DNA of 64,000 bases from Deltaproteobacteria bacterium (GTDB lineage Bacteria > Desulfobacterota > Desulfobaccia > Desulfobaccales > Desulfobaccaceae), in assembly GCA_019309545.1 (NCBI GenBank), contig JAFDGA010000023.1, positions 1,320 through 65,319 of the forward strand, given 5' to 3'. The notes under the pieces were generated by a model. That model saw nothing but the letters and a program-made list of their open reading frames with translations, ran no database searches and was not told the DNA's origin. Position numbers and translations under genes: made by a program. Below, one piece after another: positions 37,914-62,548 of the stretch. How positions within the stretch are numbered: position 1 is the first letter of the stretch; every line of letters starts with the position of its first letter.

Positions 37914-39674
37914 TCAATACTTTTCTATTTCTCGACGAAACACTGCCTTATTATAGGCAGCCACCACATCCTTTTCATTTACTGTGCCGATTACCTTCCG
38001 GGGATGGTCGTCTGCCACCACGGGGAGTTGAGCAATCTGCCGGCTGCCCATTTTCTCTAAGGCCACTTGGAGGTTATCCGAAGGCCGGATGGTAATGACG
38101 TCGGGGGTAGCCACGTCTTTCGCAATAATTAGACCTTGCAGGCTTTCTTCCTGGAGCAGCGGGCGGATATCGCGGAAGGAGATAATCCCCGTCAATTCCC
38201 CGTTTTCATTGATTACATGCAGATAGGAAACATCGCGGGCTTTGAGATTATTAAGGATATCTCTCAGTGGCATGCTTTCCGGAATGCTTACTACCTGCTT
38301 TCTCATGACGTCTCGTACCTGGATGGTTTGCAGGATACCCTGTTCCCAGCCGCGCGAAATGTCAATCCCCCGGCGCAATAGCTTGATGGTATAGATAGAA
38401 CCGCGCTTCAGGGAAGTAGTAATAATAGTACTGAGAATACAGGAAATCATCAAGGGCAGGATGATTTTATAAGTGGCAGTGAGCTCGAAGATAATCAGTA
38501 TGGCGGTAATAGGGGCGTGGGTAGTTCCGGCCACCACGGCACCCATGCCCACCAGGGCGTAGGCACCGGAACTGGCGGTAAGTGCCGGGAAAAGCTCATG
38601 CAGGCCCCAGCCGAGAAAGCCGCCGGTCATGGCTCCGATAAACAAGGAAGGCGCAAATATCCCTCCCGAGCCGCCGCTGCCAATAGTAATTGAGGTGGCC
38701 AGGATTTTGATAAAGACCAAAGTAAGGAGCAACAGGGCGGGCAACTGATTTTTGAGTGACAGGTTGATCGACCCGTAGCCTACCCCGAATACATGGGGCC
38801 ATTTTACGAGCAGGCAGCCAAGCAGGAGACCACCCAAGGCCGGCTTGAGATACTCCGGAATCTTTAATTCCTCAAAAAGATCTTCACACTTATACAGGAG
38901 GATAATAAATAACAGGGCAATCAGGCCAGCCACGATGCCTAACAAAGTATAGAACAGGAATTCCCACAGGGAGATCAACTTGTAAGCAGGGATGATAAAG
39001 GCTGGAAAATCGCCCAGATAGTAGCGGGAGATGGCGGTGGCGGTTACCGAGGAAAGAACCACCGGGGAAAAGGTGGCCAAGCCAAAATCCCCCAAGAGGA
39101 CCTCTACGGCAAACAGGACGCCGGCAATCGGCGCATTGAAGGTGGCCGCAATCCCGGCCGCGGCGCCACAGCCCACCAGGGTCCGTTGTCGCAGGTGGGG
39201 GACCTTCAGTATCTGGGCCAGAGTGGAGCCAATGGCGGAGCCGATCTGGACAATAGGACCTTCCCGACCCACAGAACCACCAGAACCGATGCAAATCCCG
39301 GAGGCCAGGATTTTGACCAGAGAAACCCGCGGTCGGATGACACCCCCTCTGAGTGCCACCGCTTCCATGACTTCCGGCACCCCGTGGCCTTTGGCTTCAC
39401 GAGCCCCAAAGTAAACAATGGGACCTACCAGGAGACCGCCCAGGGCGGGAAGGCCGATTTTGAGATAAACCGGCAGGCGGTGAGCAAAGGTCAAGATGTC
39501 CTGCGTGTTCTGATAAAAGCAGTATTGCGCCACTTTAATGGCCAAGCGAAACAGGAGTGCCCCGTAACCGGCGAAAATTCCAATGAGAATAGCCAGAAGC
39601 GAGAGATAAACATGGGGGTGGGGACGCCATCGGCTCAGAGCTTGGGTAATTTTCTGATAGGCTGCGGTCGCCAT
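37914..39674 (-). CDS. ClC-family chloride channel/antiporter with C-terminal CBS pair
   Basis: 586 aa. ClC signature blocks GHGVPE, GREGPIVQIG and GGIFAPSLFIG, with two CBS repeats at the C-terminus. Confidence 0.85.
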   Translation of the reverse strand: MATAAYQKITQALSRWRPHPHVYLSLLAILIGIFAGYGALLFRLAIKVAQYCFYQNTQDILTFAHRLPVYLKIGLPALGGLLVGPIVYFGAREAKGHGVPEVMEAVALRGGVIRPRVSLVKILASGICIGSGGSVGREGPIVQIGSAIGSTLAQILKVPHLRQRTLVGCGAAAGIAATFNAPIAGVLFAVEVLLGDFGLATFSPVVLSSVTATAISRYYLGDFPAFIIPAYKLISLWEFLFYTLLGIVAGLIALLFIILLYKCEDLFEELKIPEYLKPALGGLLLGCLLVKWPHVFGVGYGSINLSLKNQLPALLLLTLVFIKILATSITIGSGGSGGIFAPSLFIGAMTGGFLGWGLHELFPALTASSGAYALVGMGAVVAGTTHAPITAILIIFELTATYKIILPLMISCILSTIITTSLKRGSIYTIKLLRRGIDISRGWEQGILQTIQVRDVMRKQVVSIPESMPLRDILNNLKARDVSYLHVINENGELTGIISFRDIRPLLQEESLQGLIIAKDVATPDVITIRPSDNLQVALEKMGSRQIAQLPVVADDHPRKVIGTVNEKDVVAAYNKAVFRREIEKY

Positions 39675-43616: not shown

Positions 43617-43693
43617 CGGGACGTGGCTCAGCCTGGTAGAGCACAGCGTTCGGGACGCTGGGGTCGCTGGTTCAAATCCAGTCGTCCCGACCA
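43617..43693 (+). tRNA. tRNA-Pro (anticodon CGG)
   Basis: Manual cloverleaf: acceptor CGGGACG/CGTCCCG, D-stem GCTC/GAGC, anticodon stem CAGCG/CGCTG with loop TTCGGGA, T-loop TTCAAAT, encoded CCA. Confidence 0.9.
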
Positions 43694-52906: not shown

Positions 52907-54022
52907 TTATTTTAAGATCTTAATAAATTCATCAAAAAGATATCCAGCGTCATGTGGACCGGGGCTGGCTTCGGGGTGGTATTGGACCGAAAAGGCCTGA
53001 AGGCGGCGGTGACGCAGCCCTTCCAGGGTGCCGTCGTTGAGATTGATGTGGGTCAGCTCCACCTCCGGGTCGGGGATGGAATCACTGTCGACCGCAAAGC
53101 CGTGGTTCTGTGAAGTGATCTCCACCCGGCCGGTGAGCAGGTTTTTCACCGGCTGGTTGGCCCCGCGGTGGCCGAATTTGAGCTTGAAGGTGCGGCCGCC
53201 CAGGGCCAGGCCCAGGAGCTGGTGCCCCAGGCAGATACCGAACAAGGGCCTCACTCCCAGACATTGACGCGTGTTTTCAATAGCATAGGTGACTACCGCC
53301 GGATCGCCCGGACCGTTGCTGAGGACAATCCCGGCGGGCTCCAGGGCCAGAATTTCTGCTGCCGGGGTCATGGCCGGGACCACCAGAATTTCCATACCCC
53401 GTTCAGCCAGGCGGCGCAAGATATTAAATTTGACGCCGAAATCATAGGCGATGATCTTGGGGTGGCGACGCTGCGCCCAGAGGGTGGACAAATCCAAGGC
53501 AGGCGGTGGCGCGGCCTCCGGCCACCAATAGGGTGCAGCACAGGTGACATATCGGACCAGATCCAGGCCCTCCATCCGGGGCAGTTGTCGGGCTCGCCGG
53601 ATCAGTGATTCCGGATCCAGGTCCTCGGTGGAAATTATGCCGCGCATGGCCCCGACTTCGCGTAGGTGCTTGGTCGCCGCCCGGGTATCGAGGCCTTCAA
53701 TGCCCAGGACGCGATTTTGCTTCAGATAGGCGGCCAAATCGCCCTGGGACCGCCAATTGGAAGGGTAGGGGTGATACTCCTTGACGATGAAGCCCTCAAC
53801 CTGAACCCGAGAGGACTCAATATCCTCAAGATTGACGCCGTAGTTGCCCATTAGGGGATAGGTCATGGTGACGATCTGTCCCTTGTAGGACGGATCGGTC
53901 AGAATCTCCTGATAGCCGGTCATGGAGGTGTTAAATACCACCTCACCGGTGGCTTCCCCAGGGCCAGTAAAGGAGCGGCCCGATAAGACCAGGCCATCTT
54001 CCAGGGCTAAATATGCTCTCAT
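52907..54022 (-). CDS. carA: carbamoyl-phosphate synthase small (glutaminase) subunit
   Basis: 371 aa. CarA N-domain ([40 protein letters not shown]) and triad glutaminase (GICLGHQLL). Confidence 0.95.
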
Positions 54023-54288: not shown

Positions 54289-54317
54289 TTGACATGGTGC
54301 TAAAATTTTGATTAATA
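54289..54317 (+). promoter_or_regulatory. candidate promoter of the aromatic amino-acid operon
   Basis: Perfect -35 TTGACA at 54289-54294. A weak -10 (TTAATA/TAATAA) follows after 17-18 nt, about 35 nt upstream of the leader-peptide RBS. Confidence 0.35.
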
Positions 54318-54350
54318 AATTCGGTATAAATAGTCGAGGAAAAGAAGAGC

Positions 54351-54437
54351 ATGGACGCTGATCGGGCCGGGAGAAACGTTAGCTGTTATTATTACTTTTG
54401 GCCCTGGACCTGCGCCTCGACTTTTAAAAGCAAATAG
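54351..54437 (+). CDS. attenuator leader peptide rich in aromatic codons
   Basis: 28-codon ORF MDADRAGRNVSCYYYFWPWTCASTFKSK with a GAGGA RBS. Six of seven consecutive codons (54387-54407) are Tyr/Phe/Trp. It is followed by alternative antiterminator and terminator structures. Confidence 0.65.
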   Translation: MDADRAGRNVSCYYYFWPWTCASTFKSK

Positions 54438-54474
54438 CCAATAAAAACAGTGACTTTTAAAAGCCGTGGCGCAG
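54410..54474 (+). promoter_or_regulatory. candidate antiterminator helix of the aro leader
   Basis: 54410-54430 (CTGCGCC-t-CG-a-CTTTTAAAAG) pairs with 54454-54474 (CTTTTAAAAG-c-CG-t-GGCGCAG), giving 19 bp with two 1x1 mismatches. The 3' arm contains the whole 5' half of the terminator stem. The 5' arm lies between the aromatic codons and the leader stop codon. Confidence 0.55.
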
Positions 54475-54498
54475 CACAGGCGACCACGGCTTTTTTAT
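54459..54498 (+). terminator. intrinsic terminator (attenuator) in the 5' leader of the aro operon
   Basis: AAAAGCCGTGG(CGC)...(GCG)aCCACGGC followed by TTTTTTATTATT, located 55 nt upstream of the first structural gene. Confidence 0.75.
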
Positions 54499-54553
54499 TA
54501 TTCCAGGTCGTGATTAGCCTGGCTACCAGACCCCGGTTCGAGGAGGAGAGCAA

Positions 54554-55348
54554 ATGATTGGCAAACAGATTCGCATGGAACGCATTATTAATCGGGAGAC
54601 TGGGCGCACAGTGGTGGTTCCCATGGATCATGGGGTCACCGTGGGTCCCATCGAGGGTTTAATTGACATGAAGACCACCGTAGATCAGGTAGCCCTGGGC
54701 GGTGCCAATGCCATTGTCATCCACAAAGGCCTGGTCGGGACTGGCCATCGCCGCCGGGGCCGGGATGTGGGACTGATTATTCATTTATCGGCTTCCACCA
54801 GCCTGTCGCCTTTTCCGCATGCCAAGACTTTGGTCTGCAGTGTCGAGGAGGCCATCAAGTTGGGGGCGGATGCGGTTTCCATCCACGTCAATATCGGGAA
54901 CGGCATGGAACGGGATATGCTGACCGATCTGGGCCAGGTCGCGCAAGAGGCCCACGATTGGGGCATGCCGCTGTTGGCGATGATCTACCCCCGGGGAGAA
55001 AAAATCTCGGATGAGTACGAGCCCCGGGTCATCAAACACGCTGCCCGTTTAGGCGCGGAATTAGGGGCGGATTTAGTCAAGGTATCCTATACCGGGTCGG
55101 TGGAGAGCTTCCGGGAAGTGGTGGCTGGCTGTCCGGTGCCGGTGGTGATTGCCGGCGGTCCCAAGATGACCTCGGACCGAGACATCCTGGAAATGGTCAA
55201 AGGCTCGATCGAAGCCGGCGGTGCTGGGGTGTCCATTGGCCGCAATGTCTTCCAACACCGGGAGCCGAGTCGGATGGTGGGGGCCATCAGTCTGCTGGTG
55301 CATGAAAACAGCACGGTGGAGGAGGCCCTGTCCTTTCTGCAAACCTAA
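54554..55348 (+). CDS. 2-amino-3,7-dideoxy-D-threo-hept-6-ulosonate synthase (AroA', DhnA-type class I aldolase family)
   Basis: 264 aa. [25 protein letters not shown] and LVKVSYTG blocks match the MJ0400-type aldolase family. It is followed directly by DHQ synthase II. Confidence 0.8.
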
Positions 55349-55364: not shown

Positions 55365-56357
55365 ATGAAACAGGCATGGGTAAAGGTTGATCCCTGGGAT
55401 AAAAAGCGGGTTACCACTGCCCTGGAAGGTGGGGCCGACGCGGTGCTGGTGCCGGGCGGCTACGCCGATGAGGTCCGGGCTTTGGGGCGCCTCCAGGTAG
55501 TTGCTCCGGATGGCGATCTGATCCCAGGACAGGACGTCCATACTATTACGCTGACTAGCATGGAAGACGAAGCGGAGGTCATTCGACTTTCTCAGAGCGG
55601 CCCGGTAATCGTGCAATGTTCTGATTGGACGATCATTCCTTTGGAAAATCTGGTAGCCCGCTCCGCTAATCTCTTTGTCGAGGTCACCAATGCTGAAGAT
55701 GCCCGCACCTTTTTGGGAATTTTGGAGCGAGGCGTGGATGGGGTGGTGATTACCACCCCCGAGATGTCGGAAGTGAAGAAGATTTTACGGGTGGTTAAGG
55801 AGATTTCCCCGCCAGTTGAATTAACCGTAGCCCAAATCACCCAGATCAAGCCGCTGGGGATGGGCGATCGGGTCTGTGTGGATACCTGCACCAACATGGG
55901 CAAAGGGGAGGGTATGCTGATCGGCAACTCTTCCGCGGCCCTATTTCTGGTCCACGCCGAGTCCCTGGAAAACCCCTATGTGGCGCCTCGGCCTTTCAGG
56001 GTTAATGCTGGTCCGGTTCACGCCTATATCCGGGTTCCGGAGGGCAAAACCCGCTATCTGGGGGAACTGGCCGCCGGAGATGAAGTGTTGATCGTCAACC
56101 ATACCGGCCGCACTTTACCAGCGGTGGTGGGCCGGATAAAATTGGAAAAACGGCCGTTGATGCTGGTTGCTGCCAGTTGCGGCGGACAGGAGTTCAGCAC
56201 CGTGGTCCAGAATGCCGAGACCATTCGACTCACTCAACCGGGGGGCGAGGCAATTTCCGTAGTGCATCTTAAGCCCGGAGATGAAGTGCTGGTGGCCTTG
56301 GAAGAGGCTGGCCGCCACTTCGGCTATAAAGTTAGTGAGACCATAATTGAGAAATAG
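55365..56357 (+). CDS. 3-dehydroquinate synthase II (AroB', archaeal type)
   Basis: Start at ATG 55365 (GGGAG RBS). MKQAWVKVDPWDKKRVTTALEGGADAVLVP and the rest match the MJ1249-type DHQ synthase II family. Confidence 0.85.
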   Translation: MKQAWVKVDPWDKKRVTTALEGGADAVLVPGGYADEVRALGRLQVVAPDGDLIPGQDVHTITLTSMEDEAEVIRLSQSGPVIVQCSDWTIIPLENLVARSANLFVEVTNAEDARTFLGILERGVDGVVITTPEMSEVKKILRVVKEISPPVELTVAQITQIKPLGMGDRVCVDTCTNMGKGEGMLIGNSSAALFLVHAESLENPYVAPRPFRVNAGPVHAYIRVPEGKTRYLGELAAGDEVLIVNHTGRTLPAVVGRIKLEKRPLMLVAASCGGQEFSTVVQNAETIRLTQPGGEAISVVHLKPGDEVLVALEEAGRHFGYKVSETIIEK

Positions 56358-56360
56358 ACT

Positions 56361-57446
56361 ATGACCGACAAGCAAACCCTACGGCAGCAGATTGACGCCT
56401 TAGATGAACAATTGGTTTCTCTGCTCAATCAACGCCAGGCCTTAGCTCGGACCATCGGCGAGATCAAAAACCAGCAGAGCCTGGAGACCCTGGATCCGGA
56501 GCGGGAACAACAGGTCCTGTCCCATTTGCAGCAATGCAATACCGGGCCACTCAGCCAAGAGGCCTTGAATAACATTTTCCGGGAGATCATCTCTGCGGCC
56601 CGGCAGATTCAGATGCCCTTGAAGGTGGCTTTTTTGGGACCCGAAGCGACCTTTACCCATCTGGCGGCGATTAAAAAATTTGGCCGCAGCAGCCATTTCG
56701 GACCATTGCCGACTATCCAGGAGGTATTTTTCGAGGTGGAAAAAGGTAAGTACCATCTAGGGGTAGTTCCTATTGAAAATTCTACCGAGGGGGTAGTCAA
56801 CGATACCCTGGACCTGTTCGTGGAGACGTCGCTCAAGGTCTGTGGGGAGGTCTATTTGGAGATTTCGCATGATCTGATCTCCCGCACCGGTCAGCGCCAG
56901 GACATTGAAATAATCTATACCCACCCGCAGGCCTATGCCCAGTGCCGACAATGGCTCCGGACCCACCTCCCGGAAATTCCGGTCATGGATGTGCGCTCCA
57001 CCGGCGTGGCCGCACAGAAGGCCGCCCAGAACCCTAATTCGGCGGCCATTGCCAGTTCTTTTGCGGCCTCTCTCTACAATCTTCGGGTGGTCGAACCCCG
57101 CATTGAGAATCATCGGGGTAATGCCACCCATTTCTTTATTATCGGGCCGCAGAGCCAGGCTCCTACCGGGGCCGACAAAACCTCAATAATCTTTGGGGTC
57201 GATGACGTGCCCGGGGCCTTGTATAGTATGTTGCGACCGCTGGCCGAACGCCGCATCAACATGACCCGCATTGTTTCCCGACCCATTAAGACGGTGGCCT
57301 GGCGCTACCTCTTTTTCGTTGACCTGGACGGCCATCGGGATGAAGAGCCGGTTAAGGGGTGCCTGGCAGAAATGGAGCGACTGAGTGTGTTCTTTAAGGT
57401 TATGGGCTCATTCCCGCGCTCGGAAGTGGTTGAGAAGATCAGTTGA
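56361..57446 (+). CDS. pheA: bifunctional chorismate mutase / prephenate dehydratase (P-protein)
   Basis: 361 aa. N-terminal CM_2 helix bundle (LRQQIDALDEQLVSLLNQR), PDT domain (VAFLGPEATFTH, IENSTEGVV) and a C-terminal ACT domain. Confidence 0.9.
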   Translation: MTDKQTLRQQIDALDEQLVSLLNQRQALARTIGEIKNQQSLETLDPEREQQVLSHLQQCNTGPLSQEALNNIFREIISAARQIQMPLKVAFLGPEATFTHLAAIKKFGRSSHFGPLPTIQEVFFEVEKGKYHLGVVPIENSTEGVVNDTLDLFVETSLKVCGEVYLEISHDLISRTGQRQDIEIIYTHPQAYAQCRQWLRTHLPEIPVMDVRSTGVAAQKAAQNPNSAAIASSFAASLYNLRVVEPRIENHRGNATHFFIIGPQSQAPTGADKTSIIFGVDDVPGALYSMLRPLAERRINMTRIVSRPIKTVAWRYLFFVDLDGHRDEEPVKGCLAEMERLSVFFKVMGSFPRSEVVEKIS

Positions 57447-58120
57447 GTAGGCTAAAAATCTGCGTGCCGGTCATTGAGCGGAGTAACCAGGCCGCGGCCC
57501 AAGCCCTGAAACAGATTGCCGCGCGGGGCTATGTGGCTGAACTGCGGGTAGATTATTTGGCGCAGCCCGATTTGCCTTGGTTATTAGAGGCCCGTCCGGG
57601 CCCGGTGATCGTCACTAACCGGCTGCCGCAGGAGGGCGGCCAATGGCAGGGGTCCGAAACGGACCGGCAACGCCTGCTGGAGGAGGCCCTGGAACTGGGA
57701 GTGGAATACCTGGATGTCGAACTACAGGCCGAAACCCAATGGCGGGATGACCTGCTGGCCCGGCGGGGTTCCACCCGGATTATCCTGTCATGGCATGACT
57801 TCCAGGGGACGCCGGAAACCACCAGGTTAGAGGATATCCTGGCGGAGCAGATGCAGCAAAACGCTGACCTGGTTAAGCTGGTCACTCTGGCCCGGAAATC
57901 CGAGGATAACCTGCGGGTGCTGTCCCTGATACCTCAGGCCCATGGAGCGGGCCAGGAGATCATCGCCTTCTGCATGGGCCCTTTAGGAAAGTTTTCCAGG
58001 GTCATTGCCCCTTTGCTGGGCAGCTATCTGACCTTTGCCACCCTGGCAGCGGGCCGGGAATCGGCTCCCGGACAATTGACCGTCTCAGAGGTGGAAGCCA
58101 TCTGGGGGATCTTGGCATGA
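57443..58120 (+). CDS. aroD: type I 3-dehydroquinate dehydratase
   Basis: 225 aa. Typical type I DHQase layout (AELRVDYL, ILSWHDFQGTP, KLVT). Overlaps pheA by 4 nt. Confidence 0.85.
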   Translation: MSRLKICVPVIERSNQAAAQALKQIAARGYVAELRVDYLAQPDLPWLLEARPGPVIVTNRLPQEGGQWQGSETDRQRLLEEALELGVEYLDVELQAETQWRDDLLARRGSTRIILSWHDFQGTPETTRLEDILAEQMQQNADLVKLVTLARKSEDNLRVLSLIPQAHGAGQEIIAFCMGPLGKFSRVIAPLLGSYLTFATLAAGRESAPGQLTVSEVEAIWGILA

Positions 58121-58935
58121 TTGATGGCAACACGAAAGTTTTTGGCATATTGGGCCAGCCCGTCGGTCACTCCTTAAGTCCGGCCATGCACAATGCCGCA
58201 TTTCAGACCCGCGGAGTTAATGCCGTCTATGTGGCCTTTCCGGTGCAGAATCTGGAGCAGGCGGTCCTAGGGCTTAGAGGCCTCGATATCGGCGGGGTCA
58301 GCGTTACCATCCCCTTCAAAGAAGCGATCATACCGCTGTTGGACGACATTGACGCCAAGGCCGCGGCCATGGGCGCAGTGAATACGGTGATCAATCAGCA
58401 GGGGCGGCTTCAAGGTTGCAATACCGATTACCTGGGGGCGATCGCCGCCCTGAAAGATCGGACTGAAATCAAGGGGCAGCATTTCCTGCTGCTGGGAGCC
58501 GGAGGTGCCGCCCGGGCCATAGCCTTCGGGATCATCGAAGCCGGAGGACAGGTCACGATCACCGATATCGACTGGGACCGGGCCCAGACCCTGGCCCGGG
58601 AACTACAGGTGGAATCTATTGCCTTACATGATCTGGCCCACTGCCCGGCAGCGATGTTAATAAACGCTACCCCGGTGGGTATGGCCCCCGCTACGGAAGA
58701 GATACCCATTGCTCCAGAATTATTAGGGCGCTTTTCCCTGGTCATGGATATCGTTTACCGGCCCCTTAAGACCCGGCTTTTGCAGGAGACCGAGGCCCGC
58801 GGCGGCCAGACCATCGACGGCCTCCAGATGCTAATCTATCAGGGGGTTGTCCAGTTTGAACTGTTTACCGGTCGATCCGCGCCGGTGGAGGTCATGCGGC
58901 AGGCCGCCTTGGCGGCCCTGTCCGTTAAATCTTAA
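58117..58935 (+). CDS. aroE: shikimate dehydrogenase
   Basis: 272 aa. GILGQPVGHSLSPAMHNAAF, VTIPFKEA, NTD and GAGGAARA motifs. Overlaps aroD by 4 nt. Confidence 0.9.
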   Translation: MIDGNTKVFGILGQPVGHSLSPAMHNAAFQTRGVNAVYVAFPVQNLEQAVLGLRGLDIGGVSVTIPFKEAIIPLLDDIDAKAAAMGAVNTVINQQGRLQGCNTDYLGAIAALKDRTEIKGQHFLLLGAGGAARAIAFGIIEAGGQVTITDIDWDRAQTLARELQVESIALHDLAHCPAAMLINATPVGMAPATEEIPIAPELLGRFSLVMDIVYRPLKTRLLQETEARGGQTIDGLQMLIYQGVVQFELFTGRSAPVEVMRQAALAALSVKS

Positions 58936-59041
58936 CGAACAATCTTAACGAATCTTGGCGGCCCTGTACCTCGATGGTCGATTTTTTACCATCGAGATCC
59001 CAAGACCCAGAAAAAGCACTGAGTGAGAATTGTATCTACCT

Positions 59042-60310
59042 ATGGCTATGGAGACTAAACCGATTGACCGAGTCGAGGCAACCATTACTTTGCCCGGTTC
59101 GAAAAGTTTTACGCACCGGGCCTTAATTGCTGCCAGCCTGGCGGATGGGGCCAGTACCTTGTACAATCCCTTACAGGCCGAAGATACCTTGCTGACTGCT
59201 CAGGCTCTGAAGCAATTGGGGGCGCAGATCGACTGGCAGGGTCATCAATGTCGGGTGCTGGGCACCGCCGCGGTTCTAAAGGTGCCTGATAATCCTATTT
59301 ATTTAGGTGATTCAGGTACTTCCATGCGTCTTTTGACCGCATTGGTGGCATTAGGACAGGGCCGCTACCGCCTGTTGGGATCAGAGCGACTTAACCAGCG
59401 GCCTATCCAGGATCTGTTGGACGCGCTCACCCCCTTAGGGGTCGAAGCGTTCTGCGAAGCGGGCAACGGCTGTCCGCCGGTGGCCGTCAACGCCCGTGGT
59501 CTGGCCGGGGGACCGACCCGGGTGGCCGGCCAGGTCAGCAGCCAGTTTCTTTCGGCCATTTTGCTGATCTCCCCTTTTGCCCATAAAGATGTGGAAGTGG
59601 AAGTGATCGGCGAACTGGTATCCCGGCCTTATGTGGATATTACCCTGGAGGTGATGTCGGCCTTTGGCATTGCTTACTTCCGCAAAAACTACCAGTTTTT
59701 CAGTATTCCGGCTGGCCAGCGTTACCAGGCCCGCACTTATGAAATTGAAGGCGATGCCTCCAGTGCCTCTTATTTTCTGGGCGCCGCGGCGATCACCGAA
59801 GGTCGGGTAAAAATCACCAATCTTAAGGCCCCTTCCTGCCAGGGGGATGCCCGGTTTATCCAAATTTTGGAACAAATGGGTTGCCAAATTGAACAAACCC
59901 CCAACGGCCTGGTTCTGCAAGGTCGGCCGCTTAAGGGGATAACGGTAAACATGGCCGACATGCCCGATTTAGTGCCTACCCTGGCGGTAGTGGCGGCTTT
60001 TGCCCAGGGGGAGACGACTATCACCGGGGTGGCGCACCTGCGGCATAAGGAATCCAACCGTCTTCAGGCCGTTACCACTGAATTGACCAAGATCGGCATT
60101 GCCGCCCGGGAAACTCCGGAAGGTCTGGCCATCCAGGGGGGGCATCCTCACGGTGCCGCCATTGAAACCTATAATGATCACCGTATCGCCATGAGCTTTG
60201 CCCTGGCAGGCCTGAGAGTCCGGGGGATCATCATTACCAACGAAGGATGCGTGGCCAAATCGTTCCCGGAATTCTGGGAGTATTTTGACAGATTGACGGC
60301 TACAAATTAA
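59042..60310 (+). CDS. aroA: 3-phosphoshikimate 1-carboxyvinyltransferase (EPSP synthase)
   Basis: LPGSKSFTHRALIAA, GDSGTSMRLL and NDHRIAMSFA motifs. Start placed at ATG 59042; TTG 59030 is also possible. Confidence 0.93.
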   Translation: MAMETKPIDRVEATITLPGSKSFTHRALIAASLADGASTLYNPLQAEDTLLTAQALKQLGAQIDWQGHQCRVLGTAAVLKVPDNPIYLGDSGTSMRLLTALVALGQGRYRLLGSERLNQRPIQDLLDALTPLGVEAFCEAGNGCPPVAVNARGLAGGPTRVAGQVSSQFLSAILLISPFAHKDVEVEVIGELVSRPYVDITLEVMSAFGIAYFRKNYQFFSIPAGQRYQARTYEIEGDASSASYFLGAAAITEGRVKITNLKAPSCQGDARFIQILEQMGCQIEQTPNGLVLQGRPLKGITVNMADMPDLVPTLAVVAAFAQGETTITGVAHLRHKESNRLQAVTTELTKIGIAARETPEGLAIQGGHPHGAAIETYNDHRIAMSFALAGLRVRGIIITNEGCVAKSFPEFWEYFDRLTATN

Positions 60311-60456: not shown

Positions 60457-61707
60457 TTGGAAGCCACATCCCATAAAAACTCTAATGTTCCCCGGGCCAT
60501 CCTGATTCTTACCGGCCTCAATCTGCTGGATTATCTCGACCGCTATGTCATCGCCGCTCTGGCCAGTCCAATCAAGCTGGAGTTGGGGCTGTCAGATCGT
60601 GCCTTTGGGTTGTTGGGCACCGCTTTTTTTCTGGTTTATCTAATTTCCTCGCCGGTGTTCGGGTATCTGGGGGATCGTTGGGGGCGGATTCGCTTGATGG
60701 CCACCGGCGCCGGCCTTTGGAGTCTGGCCACCAGCCTGGCGGCTTGGATCAGTACCTATACCGGCCTGCTGGTTGCCCGGGGATTGGTGGGGCTGGGAGA
60801 AGCCTCGTTCGGCACCCTGGCTCCGGCTTATCTGGCTGATATTCTTCCTATATCGCGGCGGGCCCGCTATCTCGGCCTGTTCTACGCCACCATCCCGGTG
60901 GGTGCGGCGCTGGCCTATTATTTCGGTGGTCTGGTGGGTCACCGTTGGGGCTGGCGCTGGGCTTTTTTGCTTGCCGGGTTGCCGGGACTGGGGCTGGCCC
61001 TGTTGATTTTTACTCTTCCTCAACAATCAGCTCCCACCGGTCCGGATTTCGAGCACTACCCTAAAGGCGGCTTCCGGCAGCCTTTGGCAATGGCCCTGGA
61101 ACTATGGCGCATTCCTACCTTTCGTCGAGTCACCCTGGGTTACGGGCTGCTCACTTTTGCCCTGGGCGGCCTGGCTTTTTGGATGCCTCGTTTTCTGGAG
61201 ATGCACAAGGGGCTGAGTTTCAAAGAAGCCAATCTGTTGATGGCCTTGGCTACCACTATTGCGGGCGGGCTGGGGACGCTGGCCGGGGGTCTGGGAGGAG
61301 ATTGGCTGTTCTCTATCAGCCGCCGGGCACACCTCTGGGTCGGGGGCCTGGGAGTGCTGGCTGCTTTGCCCTTCGGGGCGCTGGCCATTTTTTCCACCCA
61401 ACCCCTGTTTTATGGATTAGGACTGTTTGCCGCCTGTTTTTTACTTTTTCTCAATCCCGGGGTGCTGACCACAGTGATCGTCAGCGTTGCCGGGGTCAGC
61501 CGCCGGGCCACCGCCTTGGCTTTAAATATCATTATTATCCACCTGGTGGGAGATGTACCATCGCCGTTTCTAATCGGCTGGCTCTCCGACCTGGCCGGTT
61601 TACAATATGGCGTATCATTAGCCCTGCTAGCTCTGGCCGGTAGCGCCGGCCTTTTGCTTTCCGGTATCGCAGTGGTGGCGCCAGACCTGGCCCGGGCCGG
61701 AGAATGA
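60457..61707 (+). CDS. MFS transporter
   Basis: 416 aa, ~12 predicted TM segments. MFS loop 2-3 motif GYLGDRWGRIR. TTG start as given in the ORF track. Confidence 0.8.
   Translation: MEATSHKNSNVPRAILILTGLNLLDYLDRYVIAALASPIKLELGLSDRAFGLLGTAFFLVYLISSPVFGYLGDRWGRIRLMATGAGLWSLATSLAAWISTYTGLLVARGLVGLGEASFGTLAPAYLADILPISRRARYLGLFYATIPVGAALAYYFGGLVGHRWGWRWAFLLAGLPGLGLALLIFTLPQQSAPTGPDFEHYPKGGFRQPLAMALELWRIPTFRRVTLGYGLLTFALGGLAFWMPRFLEMHKGLSFKEANLLMALATTIAGGLGTLAGGLGGDWLFSISRRAHLWVGGLGVLAALPFGALAIFSTQPLFYGLGLFAACFLLFLNPGVLTTVIVSVAGVSRRATALALNIIIIHLVGDVPSPFLIGWLSDLAGLQYGVSLALLALAGSAGLLLSGIAVVAPDLARAGE

Positions 61708-62471: not shown

Positions 62472-62548
<77 letters not shown>

Follow-up and report, generated by a model that had tools for sequence, protein, structure and literature searches.

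A probable Tyr/Phe leader-peptide attenuator ahead of the archaeal-type aroA'/aroB' operon in Desulfobaccales and Desulfobacterales

In Escherichia coli, the pheA and trp genes are preceded by the leaders pheL and trpL, which combine a short open reading frame (ORF) carrying a run of codons for the product amino acid with overlapping 1:2, 2:3 and 3:4 helices and an intrinsic terminator ahead of the first structural gene, the position of the ribosome deciding the outcome. Here we analyze a leader with the same components on a stretch of 64,000 nucleotides (nt) from a Deltaproteobacteria bacterium of the Desulfobaccaceae (GenBank assembly GCA_019309545.1, contig JAFDGA010000023.1, positions 1,320 to 65,319), which will be referred to as the window. 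The element precedes a six-gene operon, aroA'-aroB'-pheA-aroD-aroE-aroA, and, judged from its sequence, predicted folding and conservation, it is with a probability of roughly 85% a classical ribosome-mediated Tyr/Phe leader-peptide transcription attenuator of this operon. It would report the charging of tRNA-Tyr and tRNA-Phe and is expected to respond to amino-acid supply.

The likeness to E. coli extends to the regulated genes, pheA being a member of the window operon too, and one group of related leaders (group B) shares the ending CCC-UGA with pheL (PMC3082878). Nevertheless, several features set the element apart. The Rfam leader families (Phe_leader, Trp_leader, His_leader, Leu_leader, Thr_leader and others) and the T-box gave no match at E <= 10 between positions 53000 and 56000, and no leader, T-box or riboswitch family reached its gathering score in the window and five related loci; the matches obtained on the palindromic antiterminator were chance hits of miRNA- or snoRNA-like families only. 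Whereas pheL and trpL each represent one amino acid, the window family mixes dominant Tyr codons with Phe codons. In the window's group, region 1 is 5'-terminal, lies outside the coding region and contains the Shine-Dalgarno (SD) sequence, and the regulatory codons are located in a hairpin loop. Finally, the operon begins with archaeal-type aroA'/aroB' and covers the common pathway.

An earlier sequence-only reading of this locus had set the leader against the single-amino-acid leaders of E. coli. This is correct as far as the mixture of aromatic codons is concerned, but a mixed aromatic leader has a precedent in aroR of Corynebacterium glutamicum. As summarized in PMC11802643 from Neshat et al. 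2014, aroR carries a Phe-Tyr-Phe leader before aroF and is reported to respond to Phe, not to Tyr. Going by that summary, the two systems are alike in that a mixed aromatic leader attenuates an operon for the entry enzyme of the common pathway, but aroR is actinobacterial, has three aromatic codons, controls DAHP synthase instead of ADH synthase and has no sequence relationship to the present element. In Firmicutes, T-box and TRAP systems also attenuate aromatic amino-acid genes by terminator/antiterminator switching, but they sense uncharged tRNA directly or Trp via a protein, whereas the conserved feature in the window family is a translated leader. A search of the openly accessible literature found no description of an aroA'/aroB' leader, a Desulfobacterota leader or a Tyr-codon leader, and Rodionov et al. 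2004 (PMC545781) mention neither aromatic amino acids nor leader peptides. The element is most likely a previously undescribed but conventional example of classical leader-peptide attenuation, on which the SD-containing region 1 and a tandem-terminator relay in Desulfobacterales may be variants.

Elements of the leader and their conservation

All components named by the sequence-only reading were recovered (Table 1). An ORF of 28 codons is located upstream of the operon with its own ribosome-binding site, GAGG(A) at 54336-54340, followed by a strong intrinsic terminator ending in T6; between the aromatic codons, the last of which is Trp19 (54405-54407), and the leader stop codon (54435-54437) lies the 5' arm of an alternative 19-pair helix that sequesters the 5' half of the terminator. 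The terminator hairpin has 14 pairs, a single bulged base and a loop of 7 nt (-21.9 kcal/mol, z = -5.2), and none of 200 shuffled sequences was as stable. The antiterminator pairs 19 of its 21 positions, leaving a U.U and an A.C mismatch, with -24.5 kcal/mol (z = -6.0), and belongs to the minimum free energy (MFE) structure of the whole leader (z = -3.3). It takes up the 5' arm of the terminator, and the two structures are mutually exclusive. The element is more than the two-helix switch described earlier, as that description missed two conserved elements, region 1 and the hairpin H1.

Table 1: Coordinates of the leader elements, the regulated operon and the upstream neighbour in the window.
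Feature	Position	Strand	Basis or remark
carA, divergent	52907-54022	-	upstream neighbour
Leader promoter, -35 box TTGACA	54289-54294	+	A/T-rich stretch ahead; conserved in relatives
Candidate -10 box TTAATA, weak	54312-54317	+	17 nt after the -35 box
Region 1, AGUCGAGG	54332-54339	+	holds the leader SD (GAGG), close to the RNA 5' end; pairs with 54415-54422
Leader peptide ORF, 28 codons, MDADRAGRNVSCYYYFWPWTCASTFKSK and stop	54351-54437	+	translation; 75 of 78 assessable loci have a homologous short ORF here
Hairpin H1, GGGCCGGGAG (54364-54373) with CUUUUGGCCC (54395-54404)	54364-54404	+	Tyr codons in the loop; covarying stem
Regulatory codon run Tyr13-Tyr14-Tyr15-Phe16-Trp17-Pro18-Trp19	54387-54407	+	aromatic run in 71 distinct leaders
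Region 2, antiterminator 5' arm, CUGCGCCUCGACUUUUAAAAG	54410-54430	+	inside the leader ORF, codons 20-27; 2a = 54415-54422
Region 3, antiterminator 3' arm	54454-54474	+	overlaps the terminator 5' arm; helix conservation in 38 sequences
Intrinsic terminator	54459-54496	+	stem 54459-54472/54480-54494, T6 at 54491-54496; fold energy, conservation
Weak post-terminator hairpin, no T-run	54503-54522	+	5' arm GGUCGUG (54506-54512) repeats the terminator 5' arm
aroA' (ADH synthase)	54554-55348	+	ATG at 54554, SD GAGGAGGAG at 54540-54548; NCBIfam NF005556/TIGR01949, E = 1e-123
aroB' (dehydroquinate synthase II)	55365-56357	+	NCBIfam
pheA (chorismate mutase/prephenate dehydratase, CM/PDT)	56361-57446	+	NCBIfam
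aroD	57443-58120	+	NCBIfam
aroE	58117-58935	+	NCBIfam
aroA (EPSP synthase, EPSPS)	59030-60310	+	NCBIfam

Conservation was assessed upstream of aroA' in a scan of one genome per species, from which the best 80 of 265 genome matches, belonging to Desulfobaccales and Desulfobacterales, were taken (L001 to L080). Two of them had almost no upstream sequence, leaving 78 assessable loci. Their leaders fall into the sequence-distinct groups A (48 loci; the window's group), B (L004-L010), C (Desulfobacterales) and D. Alignment A1 comprises 38 leaders of group A and alignment A2 the leaders of Desulfobacterales. In a homologue list of the closest 120 proteins, the closest AroA' proteins among the matches listed came from Desulfobacca and other metagenome-assembled genomes (MAGs) of Desulfobaccales, and the leader was also detected on a metagenome contig whose protein is labelled Desulfobacca acetoxidans by UniRef.

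The comparative alignment that the sequence-only reading had proposed as a check showed conservation of both the codon run and the helices. Leader ORFs of 17-30 codons, located 100-400 nt upstream of aroA' and containing 6-7 aromatic residues per 7-codon window, were found in 75 loci. The run spans 6-11 codons and, averaged over the 71 distinct leaders, includes 7.8 aromatic codons, of which 4.6 are for Tyr, 2.8 for Phe and 0.4 for Trp. Tyr is the commonest, and both synonymous codons are in use (TAT 259, TAC 68, TTT 187, TTC 11; TGG 28). Frame, aromatic run and stop position are retained across leaders and the N-terminal residues vary; substitutions within the run exchange Tyr and Phe or are synonymous, and UAG is tolerated out of frame, whereas an in-frame stop never occurs.

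Stop-free segments with five aromatic residues in seven are not rare as such, about 18 being present in the six frames of the window, which might be taken to mean that a chance ORF lies beside an ordinary terminator or hairpins. On the comparative sequence data this explanation can be regarded as already refuted. Conservation at the same position directly upstream of aroA' was observed in about 75 loci, compared to just 6 other short stop-free segments with six aromatic residues in seven in 849 kb (window and loci, six frames). In addition, a generic attenuator scan across all 64 kb of the window, combining a small ORF with SD, an amino-acid-enriched stretch and a downstream terminator, returned solely the ORF at 54351-54437, and since carA is divergent, the terminator does not end a preceding gene. 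The stretch YYYYYF near 38433 (38410-38440, - strand) was considered as a second leader and rejected as a chance occurrence, being out of frame within an ORF of 586 amino acids (37914-39674).

The claim that the leader samples all three aromatic amino acids stood for Tyr and Phe, the codons of which are universal, but Trp17 and Trp19 of the window are not kept in its closest relatives: L001 has Trp19 only, and L002 and L003 have neither. At least one Trp codon is present somewhere in 60 of 69 distinct leaders, in most Desulfobaccales before the run as part of the H1 stem and in Desulfobacterales inside the run. Trp19 lies too close to region 2: a ribosome held there would cover approximately 8 nt of it, and folding with this mask gave the terminator. 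Sensing of Tyr and Phe is well supported, and sensing of Trp, as read from these codons, would be possible but unproven. Two loci show altered leader starts. In L003 (5761-5957) the leader ATG reads AGG in the MAG, and an in-frame ATG upstream of region 1 opens an ORF of 38 codons. L054 has lost the 5' part of the leader (approximately 250 nt upstream of aroA' at 2903) including GUCGAGG, SD and ATG; it retains the Tyr/Phe run, the antiterminator and the terminator and may be a decaying or rearranged copy.

In alignment A1 the leader consists of four almost invariant blocks, and changes in the helices are rare, nearly all of them leading to G.U pairs. The terminator helix is paired to 99.8% in the 38 sequences and the antiterminator to 97.2% compared to 38-60% for slid controls. 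L014 compensates an A-U by a G-C pair in the terminator, and L016 has three compensatory changes in the A/U part. The RNAalifold consensus corresponds to the off state, consisting of region 1 (AGUCGAGG) paired with 2a (CCUCGACU, 54415-54422), a small UAAAAG/CUUUUA hairpin and the terminator, and is paired to 98.2% (slid controls, 30-57%). The helix 1:2a itself is paired to 98.4%, every change resulting in G.U, and is the MFE pairing of nascent RNA ending at 54425-54455. A compensatory region 1:2 variant, UGAGGG:CCCUCA, was read by eye in L007 of group B. Region 1 would thus act as an anti-antiterminator through its pairing with 2a. Its location over the SD is unusual among anti-antiterminators; Desulfobacterales have a conventional region 1 adjoining the codon run.

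The 5' end of the leader RNA is likewise conserved. In 45 of the 48 group A loci a TTGACA box is present 29-42 nt upstream of GUCGAGG, with a TAnnnT-like hexamer 17 nt on, and a promoter at this position would put region 1 among roughly the first ten nucleotides transcribed; in the window, transcription would start at approximately 54322-54327. A consensus promoter/terminator scanner applied to the window listed neither the leader promoter on the + strand nor the terminator at 54459-54496.

An H1-type hairpin around the Tyr/Phe codons folds in every group A leader, and its stem sequence differs between lineages. The flanks covary, as native combinations of 5' and 3' flanks reach a mean of -18.5 kcal/mol compared to -15.6 kcal/mol for chimeras (permutation p = 2e-4). 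H1 and the helix 1:2a together form a rod. As a speculation, H1 might be a pause hairpin that synchronizes polymerase and ribosome.

Region 2 is nearly invariant in the 38 relatives, third codon positions included. Since most group A leaders end in a conserved CASTFK(R/S), the nascent chain itself (..CASTFK..) might be thought to arrest the ribosome in the manner of TnaC, sensing free aromatic amino acids in the ribosome tunnel. We regard this as highly improbable. In L017, L019 and L049, the leader ORFs of which lie approximately 195-111 nt upstream of aroA', a one-base indel causes region 2 to be read in another frame (..GVRLDF and stop), with the stop codon about 8 nt earlier and the RNA unchanged, which argues for a constraint on the RNA and not on the peptide. 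The C-termini of groups B (..PWP and stop), C (..STGLPG..) and D are unrelated, and the invariant third codon positions are complementary to the non-coding region 3. Taken together, the frame change, the third-position invariance and this complementarity indicate that RNA pairing explains the conservation.

Ribosome position and the choice between helices

In the proposed mechanism, transcription would start a few bases upstream of 54332, and region 1 would supply the SD for the 28-codon leader. With no ribosome engaged, region 1 would pair with 54415-54422 and H1 would form, the antiterminator arm would be locked, and formation of the terminator would stop transcription at approximately 54491-54498. 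Under undelayed translation, the ribosome would reach the stop codon at 54435 and cover 54420-54447 including the 3' half of region 2, so that only the terminator could form. If charged tRNA-Tyr or tRNA-Phe is scarce, the ribosome would stall at codons 13-16 with its leading edge at approximately 54405-54408, leaving region 2 naked; in toeprints the ribosome footprint extends approximately 12 nt 3' of the A-site codon. In this stalled state H1 would be melted, and region 1 would be kept from 2a or be occupied by the next initiating ribosome. Region 2 would then pair with the emerging region 3 and sequester the terminator 5' arm, and RNA polymerase would read into aroA'. What the sequences show are three conserved, mutually exclusive pairings and, running through them, an ORF of translated appearance; ribosome positions, timing and pausing are predictions of this scheme. 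The geometry is consistent with it: region 2 starts 14 nt from Phe16 and ends 5 nt before the stop codon, and relatives show the same spacing.

Folding under constraints resulted in 1:2a and H1 for nascent RNA to 54455, in the terminator for a ribosome at the stop codon, and in the antiterminator for a ribosome at Tyr15 combined with an occupied SD. The sequence-only reading had stated that a ribosome at the leader stop masks the antiterminator arm and allows termination, which agrees with the masked fold. Its further statement that a stalled ribosome frees this arm holds if the SD is occupied as well, but a single masked ribosome still gave 1:2a and the terminator.

This last result is one of several that weigh against the proposed attenuator. 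With one ribosome masked at Tyr15/Phe16, 1:2a plus terminator reaches -41.2 kcal/mol compared to approximately -27.8 kcal/mol for the antiterminator obtained with the SD also occupied; the single-ribosome fold assumes that the helix can close around the ribosome. Read-through therefore needs region 1 to be occupied, or 1:2a to be unable to close around the ribosome. Secondly, the equilibrium fold of the naked full-length leader is the antiterminator, and termination by default would thus depend on the order of folding. Thirdly, for the window by itself, the rod of 1:2a and H1 does not reach significance (z = -1.8). Moreover, the helices of group A are almost invariant and true compensatory changes few, and the distance from GAGG to ATG is on the long side, with 10 nt in the window and approximately 8-12 nt in most relatives.

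As an alternative, the element might be an attenuator in which 1:2a shuts off leader translation or stabilizes the 5' end after the decision has been made. It would then operate as the two-helix switch of the sequence-only reading, the untranslated default being read-through. A ribosome stalled at the Tyr codons would not cover region 1, the MFE structure of the naked full-length RNA contains the antiterminator, and Desulfobacterales use a conventional region 1, located just 5' of the aromatic codons, as anti-antiterminator (CAGGCAG:CUGCCUG). Nevertheless, we consider a purely post-decision role unlikely. Folds of nascent RNA form 1:2a first, and the U.U and A.C mismatches of the antiterminator, conserved in all 38 sequences, fall exactly in 2a where the pairing with region 1 is perfect, which suggests a tuned competition between the two helices.

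Helices alone do not prove translation, and the U/A-rich triplet repeats in the hairpin loop could in principle be a platform for protein binding. The switch might hence be set by a factor other than the ribosome, such as a riboswitch ligand, uncharged tRNA as in a T-box, or a TRAP-like protein on UAU/UUU repeats, with the ORF being incidental. This appears improbable. No T-box or other Rfam match was obtained in the searches described above, and beyond simple hairpins there is no room for a ligand-binding fold. Start codon, SD, frame and stop position are conserved in four sequence-distinct groups in which the non-aromatic residues vary, and the substitution pattern within the run, with its avoidance of in-frame stops only, resembles that of a translated sequence. 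We retain the ribosome-mediated Tyr/Phe attenuator as the preferred reading.

Distant leaders and the Desulfobacterales relay

Outside group A the same arrangement is built from different sequences. Group B leaders are shorter (..FYYYFYYPWP and stop) and possess a different region 2, CCUGCGCCCUCGCU, and in the group C leaders (..FYFWYYYFSTGLPG..) region 2, GGUCUGCCUGGCU, pairs with AGCC..GCAGACC. Native duplexes of regions 2 and 3 reach -24.2 (A), -22.1 (B) and -22.0 kcal/mol (C) compared to -12 to -19 kcal/mol for cross-group chimeras. Region 1 of group C, CAGGCAG, is located just upstream of the codon run and pairs with CUGCCUG in region 2, with G-C to A-U compensation in L071 and L078. As a separate observation, group B leaders end in Pro-Trp-Pro-stop with the sequence CCC-UGA, and a terminal CCC_UGA has been discussed as frameshift-prone in E. 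coli pheL (PMC3082878).

The leaders of Desulfobacterales (L057-L078; e.g., L068:5724-5945 and L074:5763-5975) are followed by two tandem intrinsic terminators, T1 and T2, and the 3' arm of T1 (UCACGGC) shows complementarity to the 5' arm of each. In alignment A2 the off-state helices (1:2, T1 and T2) are paired to 93% with 11 compensatory pairs, which was not reached by any of 500 shuffles. The on-state helices (2:3 and T1 3' arm with T2 5' arm) are paired to 89% together, and the 4:5 helix alone to 96.9%; native 4:5 pairs have -12.0 kcal/mol compared to -10.5 kcal/mol for chimeras (p = 0.003). These data suggest a relay of six segments, through which T2 would be disarmed as well when antitermination occurs at T1. 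The weak hairpin at 54503-54522 of the window, which is not significant alone (z = +0.45) and could pair with region 4, corresponds to a remnant of this second terminator. In 43 of 48 group A loci region 4 is more complementary to the 40 nt downstream than to shuffled sequences, and the repeat often ends right at the aroA' SD; the chimera test for 4:5 in group A was not significant (p = 0.06). Long insertions between attenuator and aroA' were observed in L078 (5800-6000), L067 (130-260) and L062 (5850-6000); they are built from short repeats in tandem together with the inverted complement of these repeats (e.g., GGTGTTAGGTGTTAAG...CTTAACACCTAACACC), and long hairpins would result.

The variants can be joined into a reading in which the family is more than another pheL, with the SD segment as anti-antiterminator in Desulfobaccales, the six-segment relay in Desulfobacterales and a single Trp codon as a third input. 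We put this forward tentatively, as a possibility that is rather less likely than its alternatives. If true, the Desulfobaccales switch would integrate ribosome loading with stalling, and read-through would require queued or initiating ribosomes. In Desulfobacterales the 3' arm of T1, once free, would pair with the 5' arm of T2, one stalled ribosome thereby disarming two serial terminators, and leak-through in the repressed state would be caught by T2. The third input would come from the single Trp codon, which 60 of 69 leaders retain at positions that vary.

Operon context and implications

All six genes of the operon gave NCBIfam matches, which bears out the earlier description of an aromatic operon starting with archaeal-type aroA'/aroB', and together they represent the common aromatic pathway and include pheA. 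Relatives share the gene order, whereas the upstream neighbour varies, carA being located there only in the window and L001; the leader therefore belongs to the operon. In L079 and L080, the only assessable loci that lack a leader, aroA'-aroB' is present without pheA, aroD, aroE and aroA downstream, so that the gene pair may stand in another context there. An MFS transporter gene (60457-61707) with weak similarity to aromatic-acid/H+ symporters begins 147 nt beyond aroA. It is found at the corresponding place in L001-L003, L014, L019, L031 and L035 and may be a seventh operon member. Rfam searches also detected two tRNA genes in the window (43617-43690 and 62472-62545) and a tmRNA gene adjoining the aro operon in L011 (3551-3897).

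To our knowledge, almost nothing is known of gene regulation in Desulfobaccales and Desulfobacterales, which are abundant sulfate reducers of sediments and groundwater. For both orders, the attenuator would explain in concrete, testable terms how bacteria control aromatic amino-acid synthesis when it is entered through archaeal-type aroA'/aroB'. It would also extend the short list of leader-peptide attenuators by a mixed Tyr/Phe leader in which Tyr dominates, beyond the gamma-proteobacteria and actinobacteria in which these have been studied. The conserved leader may serve as a marker for annotating the operon and would suit an Rfam-type family, and the variants with an SD-containing region 1 or tandem terminators represent natural experiments on attenuator tuning. 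By means of this element, the Desulfobacca-like bacterium most likely switches on its aromatic amino-acid operon only when Tyr and Phe run short.

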